DNA of 64,000 nucleotides from Candidatus Magasanikiibacteriota bacterium (GTDB taxonomy: Bacteria > Patescibacteriota > Patescibacteriia > Magasanikbacterales > UBA922), in contig JBAQFA010000009.1 of NCBI GenBank assembly GCA_049287025.1, forward strand, positions 24,802 through 88,801, in the 5' to 3' direction. The first letter of the stretch is position 1; each line of letters begins with the position of its first letter. Of this stretch, positions 13,796 through 49,763 are shown piece after piece. Both the position numbers and the translations under genes were made by a program. The notes under the pieces were generated by a model. That model saw nothing but the letters and a program-made list of their open reading frames with translations. It was not told where the DNA came from and did not search any database.

Positions 13796-14560
13796 TTATT
13801 TCAAACTGTTCCACAACATCTCCCAAACAAGACGTTGGTTATCAGCATTGGCTTGGTCTTCAATAATGACTAGGATCATACTCTCCCAAGAAACAGTCAT
13901 TACTCGATTGCCATAAATAACAGTGTGACTTTTGAATGATTTACCTTCGGGTAAAAATTTTACTTCACGTAATTCTTCTGTGGCACGTCTAGCTTCTAAA
14001 ATACCGGATTTGGATTTTTCCACAATTATTTTTGCTTTAACCCCTAATGAAATTCGTTCGTTGGTTAATTTTTTATACTCTTCTGGAAAAGTTGTTAATA
14101 GTTTTTCTGATGAACCATATACCAAATTTTCTTTTAGATTTACTTTGTGTCTAATCCTGTCTAGATAAGCATTCCATACATTTTTTCTACCCTCAAAATA
14201 TAATACTTTTGGTTTGTTGGCACCTTTGTTTTGTAAAGCCTCAAGTTCTGGTATTAGATCAGCAAAAAGTTGCTCTTTGTAACGAAGTGAATCCAAAAAT
14301 TTTTCTGGTTCCATGGCCACAAAATATCTTTTTCTGCCTTTGTTAACCACATTCATTAAGCCTTTAAGAATTAATTTTTCTATAATGTCGTATGTAGTTA
14401 CTCTATGTATGCCGGCTTTTTGAGCAATTGTCTGGACTGAAGCATGACCAAGCTCTAAGGTGGCTAAGTAAATTTCGGCCTCTTTGGCATCTAGACCAAA
14501 TTGTTGTAATTGATTAGGTAAAATCATAAAATGTTGTAGGAAAAGTTCTACATTTTTCAT
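13796..14560 (-). CDS. TrmB-family wHTH transcriptional regulator (paralog E)
   Basis: N-terminus EAEIYLATLELGHASVQTIAQKAGIHRVTTYDIIEKLILKGL matches the TrmB HTH. Paralogous to ORFs at 28374, 30255, 31929 and 48975. Confidence 0.7.
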   Translation of the reverse strand: MKNVELFLQHFMILPNQLQQFGLDAKEAEIYLATLELGHASVQTIAQKAGIHRVTTYDIIEKLILKGLMNVVNKGRKRYFVAMEPEKFLDSLRYKEQLFADLIPELEALQNKGANKPKVLYFEGRKNVWNAYLDRIRHKVNLKENLVYGSSEKLLTTFPEEYKKLTNERISLGVKAKIIVEKSKSGILEARRATEELREVKFLPEGKSFKSHTVIYGNRVMTVSWESMILVIIEDQANADNQRLVWEMLWNSLK

Positions 14561-28373: not shown

Positions 28374-29123
28374 TTATTTTATCTCTGGGCAATGATCCCA
28401 CATAAATTTAAACCAGGTTTTATAGCTAGTGGCCAGTGGACGACTAATATTTACAAAAATGGTAATATCGTCACTAATCTTTGTTATTCCGGCGCCAGTA
28501 AAAGACACAACATGATCACCAAAAATGTCTACCATTGAAGGCGTAGAATATTCTTTAGGTAGGTATTTGTAAGGTTTACCTACGGCTTTTGGTACATGAG
28601 GAGCTTGTTTTAGTACTTCAAAATCAAATAAATGTTTATATTTAATACCTCGACGATCCGCATCAACTAAAAATTTATCCAAAAAGGTATTGAGTCTTGG
28701 GTCGAACCAGGCTCCCTTGGCGCCAATACAATAAACATCTTCTTTAGTAGATAATACATCACGAAGAAAATTTTTAAATCCTTCCAGACCTTTATATATG
28801 TAGGCAGCCTCTAAAACAGGATGTTTTTGGTATTCGTGCATCAAGTGTGGCATTTCTTTTTCTAGCCTAGTACGTTTTTCATCAACCAGTTCCATTAGCT
28901 TGGCTGGTTCCACTGGTTTAAATAAAGTGTCGCCATGCCCAATAACTTGAAACACTAAACCTTTTTCAATTAAGCGATTCATTGAGTCATAAATATTCCG
29001 GCGATGAATTTTACTTTTTTTTGAAATATTAGAAACCGTAGTTTGTTTTTCTTGTAAAAGTGTTTCGTAAATTTTGGCTTCGTTTATTGACAATCCTAGT
29101 TCTGTTAAAATTTGGCTATACAT
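28374..29123 (-). CDS. TrmB-family wHTH transcriptional regulator (paralog A)
   Basis: N-terminus NEAKIYETLLQEKQTTVSNISKKSKIHRRNIYDSMNRLIEKGLV; C-terminal TrmB-like domain. Confidence 0.7.
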   Translation of the reverse strand: MYSQILTELGLSINEAKIYETLLQEKQTTVSNISKKSKIHRRNIYDSMNRLIEKGLVFQVIGHGDTLFKPVEPAKLMELVDEKRTRLEKEMPHLMHEYQKHPVLEAAYIYKGLEGFKNFLRDVLSTKEDVYCIGAKGAWFDPRLNTFLDKFLVDADRRGIKYKHLFDFEVLKQAPHVPKAVGKPYKYLPKEYSTPSMVDIFGDHVVSFTGAGITKISDDITIFVNISRPLATSYKTWFKFMWDHCPEIK

Positions 29124-29296
29124 AGCAAAAATATATTAAAGTGGTGTGAAGCCACACCACGTGGTGGTATTTGCCACTCTTTATATATTATATATAATGC
29201 CTTGTTACTTTGCAAGCCGCTGCTGTGCATAAAAGCTAGATGGTGAGCGGGTAATAAGGGGTTCTTTGATAAAACAATTTGAGAAGCGAGGGACAA

Positions 29297-29479
29297 ATGG
29301 AAACTGGAGAAAGGCAAGATGAAGTTACTTGTTTGAAGAAAGAGTTGGAACATGACAAAGATGAGATATATTATTTGCGTTTGGCTATCCTTAATTTGAA
29401 TAGGAAAAAGGAGTATGTCAGAATGCAAAGGATGTTCCGTGGTGGAGAAGCTGTTCTCGACATGTGGGCGCGCTATTAA
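29297..29479 (+). CDS. Small GC-rich ORF (60 aa) in leader of cassette A
   Basis: ATG at 29297 preceded by gagggacaa; METGERQDEVTCLKKELEHDKDEIYYLRL...; weak. Confidence 0.25.
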   Translation: METGERQDEVTCLKKELEHDKDEIYYLRLAILNLNRKKEYVRMQRMFRGGEAVLDMWARY

Positions 29480-29515
29480 CACGGGAGAGGGCTGAAAAAG
29501 CCTAAGGAGGACCTC

Positions 29516-30103
29516 ATGCGTACAATGTTAGTCGCGTTGCTGTCGCTGGTGCTGTTTTCAAGTATTGCTCAGGCCGAAACCTACAACACCAGGTTGCTCC
29601 TGCACGGTCACAAGACCGTCGGTGAGGGATTCGGAGTCGCGGGTTGGGTGATTGCGCCCAACATCACAAGCGTACCGAACAAGTGGGTAACCCTCGTCGG
29701 CCCGTGCTACGATGGACAGGGGTGGGGTGTAGAATTGTTGGCAGGAGCGGTTGTTTCTGGTGGCGAGAGCAAGTTTCTTGTAGATGTCAGAATAACGTTC
29801 ACTCCAAAATTCTTCGGCATCCCCTTGAACACCTGGCACAACTTCCAGTGGATTCGAACCGGAGGCTCTGGCACGGGTTACTGGTATGGACAGGTTGACT
29901 GGGTGTTGCCACTCGGACTTGGACTTCTCGGTACAGAAACCGAGAACACGTTCAACGTGAGTGGCAATGACTGGTCAGTCGCGCCTCACGTCGTGATCTC
30001 TTTCGGTGATCACTTCGCGCTAGTGTTCGCTCCACAAGCTCATTTCAATGCACGTGGCTACACTGGCACGCAAGCGTGGGTTCGTACGGTCGTGAGTCAC
30101 TAG
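29516..30103 (+). CDS. GC-rich secreted hypothetical protein (cassette A)
   Basis: RBS aaggagg; signal peptide MRTMLVALLSLVLFSSIAQA; about 58% GC versus about 33% background. Confidence 0.6.
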   Translation: MRTMLVALLSLVLFSSIAQAETYNTRLLLHGHKTVGEGFGVAGWVIAPNITSVPNKWVTLVGPCYDGQGWGVELLAGAVVSGGESKFLVDVRITFTPKFFGIPLNTWHNFQWIRTGGSGTGYWYGQVDWVLPLGLGLLGTETENTFNVSGNDWSVAPHVVISFGDHFALVFAPQAHFNARGYTGTQAWVRTVVSH

Positions 30104-30175
30104 TCGTTCTTTTATAGGGGGGAGGACTTACTTGAGACTAGTCATCTCACGTGGACCGGCACGTAAAAATCCGGG

Positions 30176-30235
30176 ATTCTAGTTAGTACTAAGTAGATAT
30201 CAAAAAACCACGCCTCATCGGCGGGTTTTTTGTTT
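30176..30235 (+). repeat. About 60-bp direct repeat (copy 1) containing terminator, 3' of cassette A and abutting TrmB paralog B
   Basis: attctagttagtactaagtagatatcaaaaaaccacgcctcatcggcgggttttttgttt; second copy at 31849-31909. Confidence 0.7.
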
Positions 30236-30254
30236 ACTTTGGGTAATTTATGAT

Positions 30255-31049
30255 TTATTTTTTCTTTTTGGCAAGTTGAGAGAGTGGTACGGCCGTATTC
30301 CAAGCTAGTTCATATAGCGCTTTTAGAATTTTTACCAAAGATGTACTTTCTATCATTACACCAATTTTGTGTGGTTTATGAGTGACGAAGACAATTTTTG
30401 ATTCAAAAATATTAATTTCACCAAAAAAGTCCTCAATTCCTGGTAGTTGATTAGGTTTAAGCCATTTAATATGAGTATAAGTCATTGATCCTTTATAATT
30501 CGTCATCCAAGTTCTAGCTGTAGGTGTATCCAAAGCAATAATACGTTCATGAATTTTACGTTTACTGCGTTCACGATTATAGCCTTCACCCCAAGTTTTG
30601 AATTCCGGCCAACTCCAGCCTTCAAAATCGGCAATAGAAAGAATTTCGGTTTTTGAATCTAAGCTCTCCCAATAAATATTTTTTAAACCCTGGGTACCTT
30701 CTTGATATTTGATAACTGGCTTTTCGGCAAACTTATAAATCGAAAATAATTTTGGTAAAACTTTTTCTACATTTAATAATTTATCTTCCCATTGCTTTTT
30801 TTTGTTTTTAATATGTTGAACCAGACGCCCTGGATTTTCCGAAGTATAAATCATTTTCGATCCTTTGCCAGTCGCGCGATCTACCAAACCATACCAACCT
30901 AACTTTTCCAAAGCATAATAACCAAGCGTTCGGTTGATACCAGCTTTTTTGGTTATCTCGGCTACAGTAGCAGGACCAAGTTCGAGCAAGGCTAAATATA
31001 CTTTGCCTTCGGTTTCATCTAAACCTAATTGACTGATTAAATCTTTCAT
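30255..31049 (-). CDS. TrmB-family wHTH transcriptional regulator (paralog B)
   Basis: GKVYLALLELGPATVAEITKKAGINRTLGYYALEKLGWYGLV; about 50% identical to paralog C. Confidence 0.75.
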   Translation of the reverse strand: MKDLISQLGLDETEGKVYLALLELGPATVAEITKKAGINRTLGYYALEKLGWYGLVDRATGKGSKMIYTSENPGRLVQHIKNKKKQWEDKLLNVEKVLPKLFSIYKFAEKPVIKYQEGTQGLKNIYWESLDSKTEILSIADFEGWSWPEFKTWGEGYNRERSKRKIHERIIALDTPTARTWMTNYKGSMTYTHIKWLKPNQLPGIEDFFGEINIFESKIVFVTHKPHKIGVMIESTSLVKILKALYELAWNTAVPLSQLAKKKK

Positions 31050-31301
31050 GTTTTTATTCTACTATATATTTGGAAATGTGTCAAATCTATTTAACAGAAA
31101 ATTATTTATATAGCAAAATACTTTATAATTAGCCAAATATTAATAATTAACTAATAAAACAATATTGACAGTTATTGTAAAATGTGGAATAATAAGTAGT
31201 TCTAGAATGAAAATTCTGGAACCAAATTGATTGGGAGTGTCTGAACACTCTGTATATATGGTCTGGCGTTCTTTACACACGTGCTAGTTGGAGGGAACAT
31301 C

Positions 31302-31727
31302 ATGAAAAGGTGCATCAAGGCTCCGGGAATTAACGCTTTCAGTGGCGAGGGTGAAGTGGGGAAGTTAGAAGATGTCCCCGGAAAACAAGGTTGCCTTCCA
31401 TTTGATCCTAGTCCGGCCGTAGGGGGTTGGATGAAGGACGACAATTGTAAAGTGGAGGCACCACCAGAGGGGTGCACGCTCGAAGTGCCCGAAACGATCC
31501 TATGCCCCAATGGAAAAAACATCCCAGCTGGAAAGTACAAGGTGGGAAAACTGCCTGATGACAAGATTCTGCATCGCTATCATGATCACGTTCTGCCCCT
31601 CACCGATGAGAAGGGGGTCACCCGGCATTATTGCATTGAAAGTTCCGGTAGGCATGTCGACTGGTCGGGATGCGTCTGCATCTTGATTCGTGTGGAGACG
31701 CGCGAAGAGCGACTGCTGATTCAGTAG
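31302..31727 (+). CDS. GC-rich Cys-rich small protein (cassette B)
   Basis: RBS ggaggga before ATG 31302 (track start 31281); 10 Cys in 141 aa. Confidence 0.55.
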   Translation: MKRCIKAPGINAFSGEGEVGKLEDVPGKQGCLPFDPSPAVGGWMKDDNCKVEAPPEGCTLEVPETILCPNGKNIPAGKYKVGKLPDDKILHRYHDHVLPLTDEKGVTRHYCIESSGRHVDWSGCVCILIRVETREERLLIQ

Positions 31728-31747
31728 CCATAAATTAAGGGGGGCAA

Positions 31748-31818
31748 GACGTAGTCTGGATTCGTCAACCAGTCCACCTGCCGGAGAGGTAGGCGTAGGC
31801 CGGCGCGTGAGCTCGGCA
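31748..31818 (+). repeat. Cassette 3' element: AGACGTARTCTGRATTCGTCAAYCA ... core GCGTAGGCCGGCGCGTGAGCTCGGCA
   Basis: Core at 31793-31818; 21 nt after the stop of cassette B ORF; four more copies in the window. Confidence 0.8.
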
Positions 31819-31848
31819 CCGTGCGCCCGACACATTCAAAACGGGCAA

Positions 31849-31909
31849 ATTCTAGTTAGTACTAAGTAGATAACAAAAAACCACGCCCTATCAGCGCGGT
31901 TTTTTGTTT
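31849..31909 (+). repeat. About 60-bp direct repeat (copy 2) with terminator, abutting TrmB paralog C
   Basis: aattctagttagtactaagtagataacaaaaaaccacgccctatcagcgcggttttttgttt. Confidence 0.7.
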
Positions 31910-31928
31910 GTTTTGAATAATTTATAAA

Positions 31929-32732
31929 TTATTTTTTCTTTTTACTAGTTTTAGCAAGCGGTGTAGCTGTAATCCACGCCAGTTCAAAAATCGCTTTTAA
32001 AATATTAGATAAAGCCGTGCTTTCTATAATTATGCCAATAGGGATTGGTTTCTTGAATAAAGCCATCATTACTTTATTATCATAAATATTAATTTCACCA
32101 CCTAAATCTTTGATAGTTGGTACTTGTTCGGGTTTTATCCAGCGATAATTAATATATTTTTTTGATCCTTGATAATGTTTCATCCAATCTCTTCCTTCGG
32201 GTGTATCTAAAACCAAAACGCGTTCAGAAATTTTTCTTTTACTACGTTCGCGGGTATATTCTTTGCCCCATTTAAAAAGATTAAACTCTGGTGTATACCA
32301 AGCTTGCAAATCCAAGACTGATAAAATTTCTGATTTGGCTTCTAAAGTTTCCCAATAAATATTTTTGGCACCCTCAACACCTTCTTGAAATCTAACGCTG
32401 GGTTTTTCGGCCACGGTATAGAGTAAATAAAAATCTGGCAATTGTGATTCTAATTCTTTTTCTTTTCTTTCCCAAGTATTAATTTTTGATTTTACAAAAT
32501 GTTTTAAATTTTTGGGATCTTTGGCTACAAATTGAATGCGTTTCTTTTGTCCAGAAGAACGATTGACTAGGCCAAACCAACCAAGTTTTTCTAGGGCATG
32601 ATAACAAAGGGTGTGACCAATGCCAGCTTTGCGGGCAATGGCGCTGGCGCCAGAAGGTCCAAGTTGTAAAAGGGCAATATAGACTTTGGCTTCTGTTTCT
32701 TCAAAGCCAATGCTTTTAAGAATTTCTAACAT
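31929..32732 (-). CDS. TrmB-family wHTH transcriptional regulator (paralog C)
   Basis: AKVYIALLQLGPSGASAIARKAGIGHTLCYHALEKLGWFGLV; ends KKKK like paralog B. Confidence 0.75.
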   Translation of the reverse strand: MLEILKSIGFEETEAKVYIALLQLGPSGASAIARKAGIGHTLCYHALEKLGWFGLVNRSSGQKKRIQFVAKDPKNLKHFVKSKINTWERKEKELESQLPDFYLLYTVAEKPSVRFQEGVEGAKNIYWETLEAKSEILSVLDLQAWYTPEFNLFKWGKEYTRERSKRKISERVLVLDTPEGRDWMKHYQGSKKYINYRWIKPEQVPTIKDLGGEINIYDNKVMMALFKKPIPIGIIIESTALSNILKAIFELAWITATPLAKTSKKKK

Positions 32733-32963
32733 AGAATTTTATTTTAGAATTTATTAGATATATTTATTATAACACAAAAATAAATTTATTTCAATATCAA
32801 ATTGAAAATAATTACTAGATTGTAAATTTTTATTTAAAATAAGCCAAAAATGGTTTATTTATTTTAAATTGAGTATTGACATACTCCATAATCTAATGCA
32901 TAATTACTTGTTCTGACGATCGAGGATTGGCCTTGAGAGTTGGACGCTAACTGGGAGGGCATC

Positions 32964-33311
32964 ATGGCCGAAGAGCACGAGGTACGGTGTGATAACTGCG
33001 CCCACCACCACGTAGGAAGCGGGGGTTGTTTCGGCAAAGTAGAGAGCAGGTTCCCCATGTACGATTTTCATAGAGGAGTAAAATACTGCATGTGGGGGGG
33101 GACCCCCAGCCGAATTGTGACCTTTTCTAGATTGAAGGGGTGCCCGCTGGGTGTGGAGTTTGTGCCACTCCGCTGGTGTGGTACCTGTGGCAACTTGGTC
33201 CAAACGGACCAAGGGTGTGCTCACCGGTTGGAGGGTTGCGAGGACCCCAGCTACAGGTGCTGGAAGATTCACCCCGACCTCAAGGAGGGTATGAGACAAC
33301 AGTACCTCTAG
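32964..33311 (+). CDS. GC-rich Cys/His-rich small protein (cassette C1), putative zinc-binding
   Basis: sigma70-like promoter ttgaca-17-cataat at 32876-32904; RBS gggaggg; CDNCAHHH...CxxC motifs. Confidence 0.55.
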   Translation: MAEEHEVRCDNCAHHHVGSGGCFGKVESRFPMYDFHRGVKYCMWGGTPSRIVTFSRLKGCPLGVEFVPLRWCGTCGNLVQTDQGCAHRLEGCEDPSYRCWKIHPDLKEGMRQQYL

Positions 33312-33335
33312 ACTACCCACCTATGGGTTAAACAG

Positions 33336-33444
33336 GCGTAGGCCGACGCGTGAGCTCGGCATTCCATTTTTGTCCAAAATATTATTTTTTGCATAAAGAT
33401 GGAGGCGCTCTTTAAAAACAAACAATCCGCACTGGTGGTGTTGG
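33336..33444 (+). repeat. Cassette 3' core motif (33336-33361) plus about 85-bp conserved leader repeat
   Basis: gcgtaggccgacgcgtgagctcggca + attccatttttgt...ataaagatgg...cgctctttaaaaacaaacaa...cactggtggtgttggttg; near-identical to 34186-34292. Confidence 0.8.
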
Positions 33445-33480
33445 TTGAAGAGATATAGTTCTGACTTAACGGAGGCTAGA

Positions 33481-34149
33481 ATGGGATACGACCCAAACCA
33501 AATGGCCCAAAGGTATTTGAGGGTCGACTGGGCCGACGTGAAGGGCTATGCCGCTTACGCGGTAGAGTCCACGTTCGGGGACCAAGTACCACCACCCATA
33601 AAAAGGAGACTCGAGGTATTGGACGGTATAAGGGACAAGGAAGGTCCCGAAGCCGCCTGTCTCGAGGCAGCAAGGATCGAATGTGAATGCCAAGTCGTTC
33701 AGGAGAAAAGAACTGAACGACGGCAGTGGAGAACGGGAGACGACCCATACAAATATGGGTCTTCGTTCTCTTCGAAGTTTGTCATCATAGATTATAATGG
33801 TGAAAAAAGATTCTACATCGCTCATAATTGGCATATGCAGGCCGTTTTCGTTTTCGCCAAAATTCTGGTGGATAGAAATAAAAAAGTCGATTTTCACGTT
33901 CTGGGTGGGGGGTGGTTCCGTGCTAATCATCCCCTAACTGTTGGCGGTTTTAGCGGTGATTTTAGCTCGTTCAAAATCTCTGACTTGAGTGAGGCGTTGG
34001 GTGGGCTTGAATTCACCGACAAAGATCCCGGTGATTGGCGCACGAATTCCATGCGTGCCACCCATATTGATTGGGCTTTTATCGAAAAAGCCCGTGACTC
34101 CTCTGAGAAATACAGGGAGGTATGGAAACGGATCTTTGAGGAGGAATAA
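33481..34149 (+). CDS. GC-rich hypothetical protein (cassette C2)
   Basis: RBS ggaggct + ATG 33481 (track used TTG 33445); 222 aa; about 50% GC. Confidence 0.55.
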   Translation: MGYDPNQMAQRYLRVDWADVKGYAAYAVESTFGDQVPPPIKRRLEVLDGIRDKEGPEAACLEAARIECECQVVQEKRTERRQWRTGDDPYKYGSSFSSKFVIIDYNGEKRFYIAHNWHMQAVFVFAKILVDRNKKVDFHVLGGGWFRANHPLTVGGFSGDFSSFKISDLSEALGGLEFTDKDPGDWRTNSMRATHIDWAFIEKARDSSEKYREVWKRIFEEE

Positions 34150-34150
34150 T

Positions 34151-34292
34151 AGACGTAATCTGATTTCGTCAATCAGCGTAGGCCGGCGCGTTAGCTCGGC
34201 ATTCCATCTTTGTATAAAAATAATTTTATATAAAGATGGTTGTCGCTCTTTAAAAACAAACAACTAACACTGGTGGTGTTGGTTGGTGATAT
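34151..34292 (+). repeat. Cassette 3' element (core 34186-34211) plus leader repeat, second copy
   Basis: agacgtaatctgatttcgtcaatca gcgtaggccggcgcgttagctcggca + attccatctttgt...cactggtggtgttggttg. Confidence 0.8.
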
Positions 34293-34339
34293 ATAAAAAG
34301 GACTGGTGGCGGACACAACCCTTGGAGAAGGAGTTGAAA

Positions 34340-34759
34340 ATGAGTACTGTCAAGATACTCATCATCGACGACGGTGATGAGAAAGTCGATCGACTGAAAG
34401 GTTATGATCGACTTGGCCACCTCCATGGTGTGGAGGTGGTACGCCGATGGAATTTTAATTCGGCTCTTAAGGAAGGGCCGTACGCGTTTAATGATTTGGA
34501 GCAAACAAAGTTTGACGTGATTATTTTGGACTTTACACTGCCAATGGACAGATTCGGTCATGAGATCTTGGATAAAATTAGACACAGTCCCAGGTTTATT
34601 ATTAACGAAAGAACGGTAGTAATTGGCATTTCCACAGAGTGGAAACGTCTATTACAATATGATTTCGGTTTGAATCTTGCGATCTACAAGGAGGAAACGA
34701 TGGCTGACGAACTGGAAACAGCCATCAAGTCCTTCGTCGCCACTGGCAAAGTCAAATAA
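34340..34759 (+). CDS. Orphan CheY-like response-regulator receiver domain protein (cassette C3)
   Basis: RBS gagaaggag + ATG 34340. KILIIDDGDE...DVIILDFTLP matches the REC-domain acidic pocket and phospho-acceptor Asp. No output domain. Confidence 0.55.
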   Translation: MSTVKILIIDDGDEKVDRLKGYDRLGHLHGVEVVRRWNFNSALKEGPYAFNDLEQTKFDVIILDFTLPMDRFGHEILDKIRHSPRFIINERTVVIGISTEWKRLLQYDFGLNLAIYKEETMADELETAIKSFVATGKVK

Positions 34760-34780
34760 TTTGGGGAGGGAAAGACGAAG

Positions 34781-34824
34781 CTTGGGATTTGTCACCCAAC
34801 GTAGGCCGGCGCGTGAGCTCGGCA
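34781..34824 (+). repeat. Cassette 3' element, fourth + strand copy
   Basis: agacgaagcttgggatttgtcacccaa cgtaggccggcgcgtgagctcggca, 22 nt after stop of C3. Confidence 0.75.
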
Positions 34825-34959
34825 ATCTCCTTTTTCGCGAAAGAAAGAGCAAAAAAGATCCAGTAAAACTGGGCTTTTTTGTTTGTGGATAAAATAGTTG
34901 ACAATGTGTCTAATATCGTGTATAGTATATAATATATTATAAACTATATACTATAAACT

Positions 34960-35460
34960 ATGAAAACAGACACTACTGACAAAATTTTAGAGTATATTAA
35001 AGAAAAAGGACAGGTTAAACCAAAAGATATAATTAATTATATTGGTTTTGGTGCGCCTGCTGTTTTTAGACAATTAAAAAAACTCATAAGTGAAGGTAAG
35101 ATAGAAAAAAGTGGCACTCCACCAATGGTTTATTATCATTTTCCGATTGACATAAAAGATATAGAGGTTAACGAAAAGAAAATTTTTGATATAAAAATAA
35201 ATTTAAAAGAATTTGGTATTCATCTTTCAGATAGAGAATCAGCCAAAAGATCGTTATTGTTTATTAAGATGAGGTATAAGAAAATTATTGATAATGTCAA
35301 TAAAATTGAAATTAATTTTGAGGATATAAAAGTACTAGGACCTGGCTGGGCTGACGAATTTATTTCTAATTTATCAAAAGAGTATCCAGGAAAGATAGTT
35401 TTGTTGCCTAGTAATAATGCTAGCATAAAAGCTTCGTTACAATTTATTAATATAAAATAA
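34960..35460 (+). CDS. wHTH DNA-binding protein with C-terminal STAS-like (DUF4325-type) domain
   Basis: N-terminus ILEYIKEKGQVKPKDIINYIGFGAPAVFRQLKKLISEGKI; C-terminus KIEINFEDIKVLGPGWADEFISNL. Confidence 0.45.
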   Translation: MKTDTTDKILEYIKEKGQVKPKDIINYIGFGAPAVFRQLKKLISEGKIEKSGTPPMVYYHFPIDIKDIEVNEKKIFDIKINLKEFGIHLSDRESAKRSLLFIKMRYKKIIDNVNKIEINFEDIKVLGPGWADEFISNLSKEYPGKIVLLPSNNASIKASLQFINIK

Positions 35461-47596: not shown

Positions 47597-47625
47597 GTAA
47601 ATTTTACGGAAATTAAACAAAAAAT
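47597..47625 (+). repeat. 28-bp direct repeat, left flank of TrmB+cargo module D
   Basis: gtaaattttacggaaattaaacaaaaaat; partner at 49777-49806. Confidence 0.75.
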
Positions 47626-47676
47626 CCCTTCCTAAATGGTTGGGATTTTTTTGTCTCGTTTGTCGACAAGTCGAGA

Positions 47677-47702
47677 TGCCGAGCTCACGCGCCGGCCTAC
47701 GC
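47677..47702 (-). repeat. Cassette 3' core motif, reverse-strand copy after cassette D1
   Basis: Revcomp reads ctatggattaaatag GCGTAGGCCGGCGCGTGAGCTCGGCA; the upstream 15 nt also match the copy at 33321. Confidence 0.8.
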
Positions 47703-47784
47703 CTATTTAATCCATAGATGGAGTGCCACTTTTGAATGTGTGTGGCGCACAGTGAAGAGGTGTGGAACAAGCCGGCCATGTTTA

Positions 47785-48228
47785 TCAGATTTTGAATTCC
47801 TGATAAATCCTGGCCAGCACCTTTGCAGCCGTATGAACTCGTTCCAGGATGTTCGTGAGTGCGTCGGAGAATTCGTGCCACTCCCAGACAGTCTCTTCCC
47901 CGTCACTTTTCAGGTTGTAGCTACCCATCATGGCGGCAAACACTTGGTAGGCGTTAACGCTTCGGCCTGTTTTTTCCCCACGCAGTATACTGCCGTGTAT
48001 GTGTTGCGCGTAGTTTTCAAGCCACTCAACCAAATCTTCGTTCCCCTCTATTTTCTGTAGAAGCTGGTCTGCGATTTGATCAACGCTTTCCTTACAACAC
48101 TCTTCATCTGCGTCAAGTCGTAAGTACAGGCAAACGATGGCGATCAGATTGGGTGGAAGGTCATAGCATCCCTCAGGATAAGTCCTGAGCATAGGCTCGC
48201 CTTCTCCCCAGCTAGAAAGGTAGAGCAT
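47785..48228 (-). CDS. GC-rich hypothetical protein (cassette D1)
   Basis: RBS aaggaggtga + ATG at 48228; 147 aa acidic protein; about 55% GC. Confidence 0.55.
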   Translation of the reverse strand: MLYLSSWGEGEPMLRTYPEGCYDLPPNLIAIVCLYLRLDADEECCKESVDQIADQLLQKIEGNEDLVEWLENYAQHIHGSILRGEKTGRSVNAYQVFAAMMGSYNLKSDGEETVWEWHEFSDALTNILERVHTAAKVLARIYQEFKI

Positions 48229-48256
48229 CACTCACCTCCTTGTTTACAAAGAACGT

Positions 48257-48292
48257 TGTCCAACTTTCGAGGTACATCCTCGATTGTCAGAA
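48257..48292 (-). repeat. 36-bp conserved leader repeat upstream of cassette D1 start
   Basis: gtccaactttcgaggtacatcctcgattgtcagaac; second copy at 48681-48716. Confidence 0.7.
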
Positions 48293-48385
48293 CTTCCTCC
48301 ATCTTTATACAAAAAATATTTTGGACAAAGATGGAAGGCCCGGCGCTTTGTTGACGCGCGGCCGGGCGAAGCGTGGCGGAGTGTG

Positions 48386-48652
48386 TTACTCCTTGGGTGT
48401 GGAGAGGTGGAGAAAGTGGCGGATTTTTTGCCAGAAGATTTTGTTGGCTTCTATTCCGGCTTCCTTTTTCGCTCGAGCCTCCCTGATGCCCTTGTTCCTT
48501 TCGAGGCCACACTGGGGGCAGTAGGACATGTGAGGTAAGAGTTCATTTCCACACAGGCATTGTGGAAGAGCAACTCTCTTTACACCACAATATTGACAGA
48601 ACTCTGAGTATCCCACGTGACTACACATCGGGCACAGCCTACTCTCAAGCAT
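48386..48652 (-). CDS. GC-rich double zinc-ribbon small protein (cassette D2)
   Basis: RBS ggaggaagaa + ATG 48652 (track TTG 48685); CPMCSHVGYSEFCQYCG...CPQCG. Confidence 0.55.
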   Translation of the reverse strand: MLESRLCPMCSHVGYSEFCQYCGVKRVALPQCLCGNELLPHMSYCPQCGLERNKGIREARAKKEAGIEANKIFWQKIRHFLHLSTPKE

Positions 48653-48680
48653 TTCTTCCTCCAGAGTGTAAGGAATTTCG

Positions 48681-48716
48681 TCCAACTTTCGAGGCCCATC
48701 CTCGATCGTCAGAACA
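48681..48716 (-). repeat. 36-bp conserved leader repeat upstream of cassette D2 start
   Basis: gtccaactttcgaggcccatcctcgatcgtcagaac. Confidence 0.7.
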
Positions 48717-48974
48717 AGGAATTGTAGATTATTTATGAGTAATTGTCAAGATTAAGTAGTTCAAAAATGTATATAAAATAGGCTAAAATAAGCTAAATAA
48801 TTATTAACACATATAATTTTGTCGGGATGATTTGACATATATTGTTATATATGTTATATTAGTTATGGTTTAAAACATTATTTTGTTTGCTAAAGTGGTT
48901 AATTGTAGGAAAGATTCACCCTTCGGGTATCTTCGACCTCTCCGCCAGTCGGCGGATCGGAATGAACTAAAAAA

Positions 48975-49763
48975 ATGGAAAAAAATAATTTAGAAAAATT
49001 AATAGATTTGGGTCTACAAGAAAATGAAGCCAAAATATATTTGGCTTTGTTGGAATTGGGAAAAGGCAATGTGACCGAAATTAGTCGGCGCGCAGGATTG
49101 AACCGGACGACGGGTTATGATATTTTGGAACGTCTTGGTTTACATGGTATGGTGAACCGCGCCAGAGTGGGTAGTAAAAAAATTATTTATGTGGCCGAAC
49201 CGCCATCACATTTGCGTCAGTACTTGGAAGACAAAAAACGCGCCATGGAAAGACGGATGGAAGAATTAAATGATTTGTTGCCAGATTTGCAATCACTTTA
49301 TAAAACTGATATTAAACCAGTTATAAAATTTGCCGAAGGGAAAAGTGAAATGCAAAAATTGTATTTGAATGTTTTGGATGCGAAGAGTGAAGTTTATTCA
49401 ATTCTTAATTTAAAAGGTTATGCCGAAGTTTTTGATGAACTGGGTGCTTATCAATCCAAAGAACGACATAAAAAAGGCATAAAAGAAAAAGTTTTGGCTA
49501 TAAAAAATGATACCGCTCTGTGGTGGTATAATAAAACTTATAAAAATAAAACTGCCAAGGATAAAAAGTTAACCGAATATCGCTGGCTAGAAGATGCGGA
49601 AAAGTATTCTACCGCCGGAGAAGTAAATATTTTTGATGATAAAGTAATTGGTGTATTATCCAAACCAAGTGAAAATGTGGCATTTGAAATTCAATCACAG
49701 ACATTTGCGGATTTTTTGAAATTAGTTTTTGAAATGGCGTGGAAGAATAGTGAACAAAAATAA
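48975..49763 (+). CDS. TrmB-family wHTH transcriptional regulator (paralog D)
   Basis: NEAKIYLALLELGKGNVTEISRRAGLNRTTGYDILERLGLHGMV; C-terminal domain like paralogs B/C. Confidence 0.75.
   Translation: MEKNNLEKLIDLGLQENEAKIYLALLELGKGNVTEISRRAGLNRTTGYDILERLGLHGMVNRARVGSKKIIYVAEPPSHLRQYLEDKKRAMERRMEELNDLLPDLQSLYKTDIKPVIKFAEGKSEMQKLYLNVLDAKSEVYSILNLKGYAEVFDELGAYQSKERHKKGIKEKVLAIKNDTALWWYNKTYKNKTAKDKKLTEYRWLEDAEKYSTAGEVNIFDDKVIGVLSKPSENVAFEIQSQTFADFLKLVFEMAWKNSEQK

Follow-up and report, generated by a model that had tools for sequence, protein, structure and literature searches.

The window analysed here is a 64,000-nt stretch of DNA from a Candidatus Magasanikiibacteriota bacterium (Magasanikbacteria, within the candidate phyla radiation, CPR). 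The genome is AT-rich, and the window contains two islands of GC-rich gene cassettes, built on a common plan: a gene for a TrmB-family regulator, a strong divergent promoter, a 5′ hairpin, orphan ORFs, a 26-base motif, and a terminator. The orphan cassette ORFs are characterized by a GC3 of 0.49-0.68, versus 0.25-0.30 for host genes. They include ORF B (29516-30103), ORF C (31302-31727, + strand; 141 aa, GC3 0.56), ORF D (32964-33311, +; 115 aa, Cys-rich, GC3 0.68), ORF E (33481-34149, +; 222 aa), for which no relatives were found among about 15 billion proteins, and ORF F (34340-34759, +; 139 aa), which exhibits weak similarity to receiver domains. The second island contains ORF H (47785-48231, −; 148 aa) and, upstream of it, ORF G (48386-48685, −), a zinc ribbon protein.

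The TrmB-family regulator divergent from the D-E-F cassette lies at 31929-32732 (−). Its paralogs are found at 28374-29123 (−), 30255-31049 (−), 48975-49763 (+), and 13796-14560 (−), and are about 50% identical at the protein level and 70-73% at the DNA level. A near-consensus sigma-70 promoter is predicted for the D-E-F operon (32876-32904, +), with predicted equivalents at 31165-31193 (+), 29171-29198 (+), and 48721-48749 (−); the only cassette ORFs without one are E and F, both of which are inside the operon. At the predicted transcript start is a conserved leader hairpin, GUUCUGAC-GA-UCGAGG-AUNNN-CCUCGA-RA-GUUGGAC (32910-32945, +), further copies of which occur at 48680-48715 (−) and 48258-48293 (−).

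Distribution and conservation of the motif

The 26-base motif is genuine: it is non-coding and strongly conserved. A search of the window allowing up to three mismatches located exactly five copies, the number given in a preliminary description of this DNA, where none is expected by chance (0/100 dinucleotide-preserving shuffles contained any match). Copy 1 (31793-31818, +), consisting of a CGUAG linker and the predicted hairpin P2, lies 3′ of ORF C and has no mismatches. Copies 2 (33336-33361, +) and 3 (34176-34201, +) are intercistronic, between ORFs D and E and between ORFs E and F, respectively; each has one mismatch, copy 2 possessing an A-U as the fifth P2 pair and copy 3 a GUUA loop. 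Copy 4 (34799-34824, +) lies 3′ of ORF F at the end of the operon and has one mismatch, its first base being A, while copy 5 (47677-47702, −) is found 3′ of ORF H and has none. Three copies had been placed correctly; the third had been set 10 nt off and the fourth begun at 34800. The distance from stop codon to core is 65, 24, 26, 39, and 82 nt for copies 1-5, so that the 20-70 nt originally proposed was roughly right, the measured range (24-82 nt) being slightly wider.

As had been claimed, every copy follows a GC-rich ORF and is oriented with it, both in the window (5/5) and when related lineages are included (12/12). The upstream ORFs of the five copies all belong to the nine GC-rich ORFs of the window, with no copies after the other 52 or so (hypergeometric p ~2e-5, window ORF table). 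The flanking genes are unidirectional for two of these copies and convergent for the other three; all five are confined to the two cassette islands, and none is present at about 50 ordinary gene ends. Neighbouring copies are direct, at a spacing of 620-1540 nt, and inverted pairs (REPIN/BIME) were found at none of the 12 sites. Four of the five copies carry GTAG on the + strand, which, given the positive GC skew and the location of dnaA at the window start, represents the leading-strand sequence, i.e., the lagging-strand template. A possible degenerate remnant, GGACCGGCACGTAAAAATCCGGGA (30153-30176, +), lies 3′ of ORF B; a by-eye comparison with 31812-31850 lends this weak support. Two GC-rich cassettes of the window are without the motif, and between ORFs G and H its place is taken by a different GC-rich hairpin, GCCCGGC...GCCGGGC (48338-48367, −).

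The broader motif search advocated at the outset added seven copies from public sequence scans, restricted to three related Candidatus Magasanikbacteria lineages; no match was found in the remaining public sequence searched. All 12 copies lie 3′ of a GC-rich ORF, in the sense of that ORF, and between a near-consensus promoter and a terminator, which places them strictly within predicted transcripts in sense orientation. Identity among the window copies is 96-100%. A comparison of the window with lineage UBA11710 gives 92-96% for the motif, 79% for the orthologous TrmB proteins, 54% for ORF D, and 44% for ORF C; conservation of the motif thus extends well beyond that of the flanking ORFs.

Across the four lineages the orthologous TrmB-plus-leader site carries three unrelated sets of ORFs. 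Homology ends just past the 5′ leader hairpin and returns at the hairpin (P1) just before the motif, and ORF E is bracketed by a duplicated block of approximately 122 nt that starts with the motif core. Cassette content therefore turns over between conserved ends, and the proposal that the motif bounds cassettes on their 3′ side is borne out: judged by these alignments, it sits at the 3′ edge of cassettes whose content varies from one related strain to another. In more distant relatives TrmB genes and GC-rich ORFs are still arranged in this way but the motif is missing, as it also is from two cassettes of the window, so that it is dispensable for the cassette system.

Structure of the motif and its flanking modules

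The motif has two parts: CGUAG, invariant and single-stranded, and then a bulged GC hairpin of 7 bp (P2) with a GUGA or GUUA loop. In the window the core folds as GCCGG-C-GC-GUGA-GC-UCGGC; the 21-nt consensus is GCCGR-C-GC-GUKA-GC-YCGGC, with all seven pairs preserved in every copy. P2 was predicted in seven of eight folded contexts, the exception being related locus L002, where the core, in the fold of minimum energy, pairs with sequence further downstream. The fifth pair is G.U in seven copies, A-U in four, and G-C in one, and is broken in none; read on the opposite strand, the G.U pairs are C.A mismatches. The core contains the short palindromes GCCGGC and GAGCTC, and the bases directly 3′ of it are AUUCC, ACCGU, or AUCUC. 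Rfam 15 covariance models at gathering scores matched only tRNAs in the window, and at E values up to 10 none overlapped the four + strand copies in the 29000-35000 region.

The preliminary description saw no long hairpin and no plain terminator here. The second part stands: the core has no U tract and separate terminators lie 30-60 nt downstream, which rules it out as an intrinsic (Rho-independent) terminator. The first calls for a qualification, since the core does form the bulged 7-bp hairpin. Likewise, separate terminators do follow copies 1, 4, and 5 (31875-31906, 34860-34881, and 47618-47652, respectively), but not copies 2 and 3, which are followed by an AT-rich hairpin and then the next cistron. 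The AT-rich hairpin after copy 2 (33364-33402, +) has homologues at 34204-34239 and 48299-48334 (−). Downstream of it is a boxA-like element, CGCUCUUUAAAAACAAACAA (33406-33425, +; second copy at 34244-34263), and a GU-rich hairpin (33423-33447, +). By the boxA sequence criterion, CGCUCUUUA at 33406 and 34244 reads as a putative boxA (reference sequences UGCUCUUUA for rrn and CGCUCUUA for lambda; PMC2724277).

Two types of upstream arm (P1) precede the core, distributed as first reported. Type A, AGACGxAxxxTGxxATTxGTCAxxCA, precedes copies 1, 3, and 4. In copy 1 it forms a pseudoknot-like GACG..CUGG..CGUC..CCAG (31748-31772, +), between which and the core an extra hairpin, CCUGCC[GGAGA]GGUAGG (31777-31793, +), intervenes; the corresponding arms are GACG UAAU CUGA UUU CGUC AA UCAG (34152-34176, +) in copy 3 and GACG AAGC UUGGG AUU UGUC A CCCAA (34774-34799, +) in copy 4. 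Both stems covary among the copies (e.g., CUGG/CCAG, CUGA/UCAG, UUGGG/CCCAA, CGGG/CCUG). Type B, CTATGGRTTAAAYAG, precedes copies 2 and 5. In copy 2 it is a hairpin, YYURU[GGGUUAA]AYARR (33316-33336, +), which abuts CGUAG and exhibits compensatory changes, and in copy 5 it occupies 47702-47723 (−), just upstream of which is a decayed duplicate of the downstream element of copy 1 (47724-47750, −). A constant core is thus flanked by shuffled combinations of upstream and downstream modules.

The helices of the module covary. In type B, three of five pairs show compensatory changes and 97% of cells are paired, versus 23-37% in slid controls; 6 of 500 shuffles attained the covariation score. The covariation statistics are weak, the sample being just 12 related copies from four lineages. 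The compensatory changes in the helix adjoining the core point to selection on structure and, with the G.U pairs and the co-orientation of all 12 copies with transcription, support the role on the transcribed strand that was initially suspected.

Comparison with known elements

The closest known format, overlooked in the preliminary description, is the GTAG-tagged REP (repetitive extragenic palindrome). These elements are defined by GTAG at the 5′ end of a palindrome (PMC3733652, PMC8266576) and possess an unpaired GTAG, a GC stem of 5-7 bp, unpaired residues, and an inner GC-flanked tetraloop (PMC3733652). Published REPs are mostly found downstream of ORFs, between unidirectional or convergent genes, and contain G.T pairs, and an RNA function has been suggested for them. 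REPs are 20-40 nt long, numerous, and scattered over the genome, often as inverted dimers, and typically flank the gene of an associated RAYT (a Y1 HUH transposase). The motif shares with REPs of this kind (especially the GTAG-3 family, to which E. coli REPs belong) its length of 25-26 nt and its GC-rich imperfect palindrome; GTAG stands directly 5′ of the stem in 12/12 copies and is followed by an outer GCCGG stem, unpaired residue(s), an inner GC-flanked tetraloop, and a closing A. It is likewise extragenic, 3′ of ORFs, with G.T/G.U stem pairs and a lineage-specific sequence, and has GTAGGCCGG...CGGCA in common with the Y-type REP of E. coli K-12. By comparison with REPs, it is present in only five copies in the 64 kb of the window, all in GC-rich cassette islands, without inverted dimers or BIMEs and with every copy co-oriented with transcription; a second covarying hairpin or pseudoknot always precedes it, and its host is a CPR bacterium. 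The motif is probably not a full member of the REPs: no RAYT was found in the window ORFs and loci searched, inverted pairs are lacking, and the copies of the window all lie in cassette islands. A full-text literature search, judged by title and abstract, returned no papers tying REP-type elements to CPR/Patescibacteria.

The resemblance to integron attC sites, proposed earlier, is one of placement: the motif follows each ORF, in its orientation, and bounds exchangeable ORFs, with ORF E between direct copies. By contrast, there is no intI, attI, or Pc, and the neighbours of the cassettes are TrmB regulators. The attC site is a 57-141-nt R″-L″/L′-R′ palindrome, conserved in structure and variable in sequence, whereas the motif is a 21-nt hairpin conserved in sequence; moreover, integron cassettes lack promoters and form one co-oriented array, and the cassette units here carry their own near-consensus promoter and a divergent regulator. 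Of the 12 copies, only three have GTTRRRY, the attC crossover sequence, in their P1 loop, with no RYYYAAC partner. Identity with attC is excluded by the failure to find an integrase in the window, the absent attC architecture, and the units' own promoters.

REP-dependent mRNA stabilisation is known in E. coli operons. Like intercistronic and 3′ stabiliser hairpins, the motif is a stable GC hairpin without a U tract shortly after stop codons, located both between cistrons and ahead of a true terminator. It differs in its invariant sequence, the unpaired CGUAG included, which is more suggestive of specific recognition than of a barrier that is simply structural. Similarities to IS200/IS605-type ends and to palindrome-associated transposable elements are subterminal hairpins at both ends of the unit and a tetranucleotide, resembling a guide sequence, 5′ of the hairpin; unlike such ends, the 5′ and 3′ hairpins of the cassettes are unrelated in sequence, the 5′ hairpin starts at the predicted transcript start, and no tnpA was found.

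Function and origin of the module

We tentatively favour the reading that the motif is a transcribed, REP-like 3′ or intercistronic module for RNA stability or processing, which also serves as a recombination junction; that it stabilises RNA or directs its processing, that a factor binds it, and that exchange proceeds by recombination are all things that we infer. The motif would be the conserved centre of a three-part mRNA module closing each GC-rich cassette cistron: a variable hairpin or small pseudoknot (P1), single-stranded CGUAG, and the bulged hairpin P2. Such a module may block 3′-5′ exonucleases and mark a defined place for cleavage or binding between cistrons that a sequence-specific factor recognises, a role demonstrated for E. 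coli REPs. Because the motif block and the conserved 5′ leader turn up together at several expression sites under TrmB control, the block could also provide portable homology, or a junction for swapping or inserting ORFs, which would account for unrelated ORFs sharing the motif.

Against the RNA reading, sequence conservation would be superfluous for a plain exonuclease barrier, and the near-invariant CGUAG and P2 fit recognition at the DNA level, by a RAYT-like enzyme or other protein, equally well. A true DNA-level REP, non-autonomous, recognised as single-stranded DNA by a RAYT/TnpA_REP encoded elsewhere, and spread to cassette 3′ ends, is an unlikely explanation. It would accommodate the placing of GTAG immediately before a bulged, GC-rich palindrome, which group 2 REPs share, the sequence in common with the E. 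coli Y-type REP, the sharp element boundaries with unrelated flanks, the invariance of tag and hairpin, which recognition by a protein would lead one to expect, and the GTAG of four of five copies on the leading-strand sequence. Yet no Y1/HUH transposase (PF01797-type, RAYT) was matched by Pfam in the approximately 50 of 61 window ORFs scanned, and six-frame tblastn with E. coli RayT against the window and related loci L001-L014 gave nothing with E below 4; the lack of inverted pairs, the uniform orientation with transcription, the empty ordinary gene ends, and the restriction to three other lineages in public scans also count against it. Dedicated site-specific capture, analogous to attC and performed by a different enzyme, of ORF-plus-motif units into TrmB-controlled sites seems quite improbable. 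An inserted circular ORF-plus-site unit is expected to end up between direct repeats, as ORF E does between motif blocks, and the mosaic flanks of the core and the differing content of one site among lineages agree with capture; but neither a tyrosine recombinase nor an integron integrase was found, the sole recombinase of the window being of the large serine type and adjoining a tRNA cluster at a distance of 24 kb. The attC architecture is missing, and the duplicated block is of a length at which RecA could recombine it with no need of a dedicated enzyme.

We consider it very unlikely that the motif is a functionless leftover of segmental duplications of TrmB cassettes whose copies gene conversion keeps alike. 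Paralogy and tandem duplication do extend to the TrmB genes, promoters, leaders, and terminators, and the motif is missing from two GC-rich window cassettes and from more distant relatives; however, its copies are far more alike than the TrmB paralogs, it is conserved across lineages in which the adjacent ORFs have diverged to 44-54%, and the adjoining helix has undergone compensatory change. A DNA operator or other protein-binding site at cassette ends, for a TrmB-family regulator, gyrase, or nucleoid protein for instance, is highly improbable. The short palindromes in the core, the five TrmB paralogs adjoining cassettes, and the gyrase binding reported for E. coli REPs would fit such a site, but the motif lies 0.4-2 kb downstream of promoters, outside the divergent control regions, cassettes with TrmB paralogs of only about 50% identity have one and the same sequence, and strand-specific G.U pairing with strict co-orientation is unexpected for duplex DNA.

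A wider and doubtful possibility is that Magasanikbacteria possess an integron-like, mechanistically distinct system that slots GC-rich orphan genes into TrmB-controlled sites via a REP-like junction. The orphan genes, about 50-60% GC irrespective of host GC, would be supplied by the site with a strong promoter, a stabilising 5′ hairpin, and boxA antitermination signals, and ORF-plus-motif units would be captured or swapped at the motif block by RecA, an HUH enzyme, or another enzyme. Their foreign-like composition may mean that they are drawn from a common pool of genes outside these bacteria, perhaps that of the host or of its mobile elements.

What these data describe is a REP-like element found only where orphan genes of foreign composition end, and the set of these genes changes from one close lineage to the next. 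If it is an RNA stability or processing signal, these symbionts with small genomes would give their variable accessory genes a complete expression kit of regulator, strong promoter, 5′ hairpin, boxA, and 3′ module. If it is also a junction for cassette exchange, it would offer a simple, integrase-free path to accessory-gene turnover, and the origin of GC-rich orphan genes in CPR genomes would become testable.

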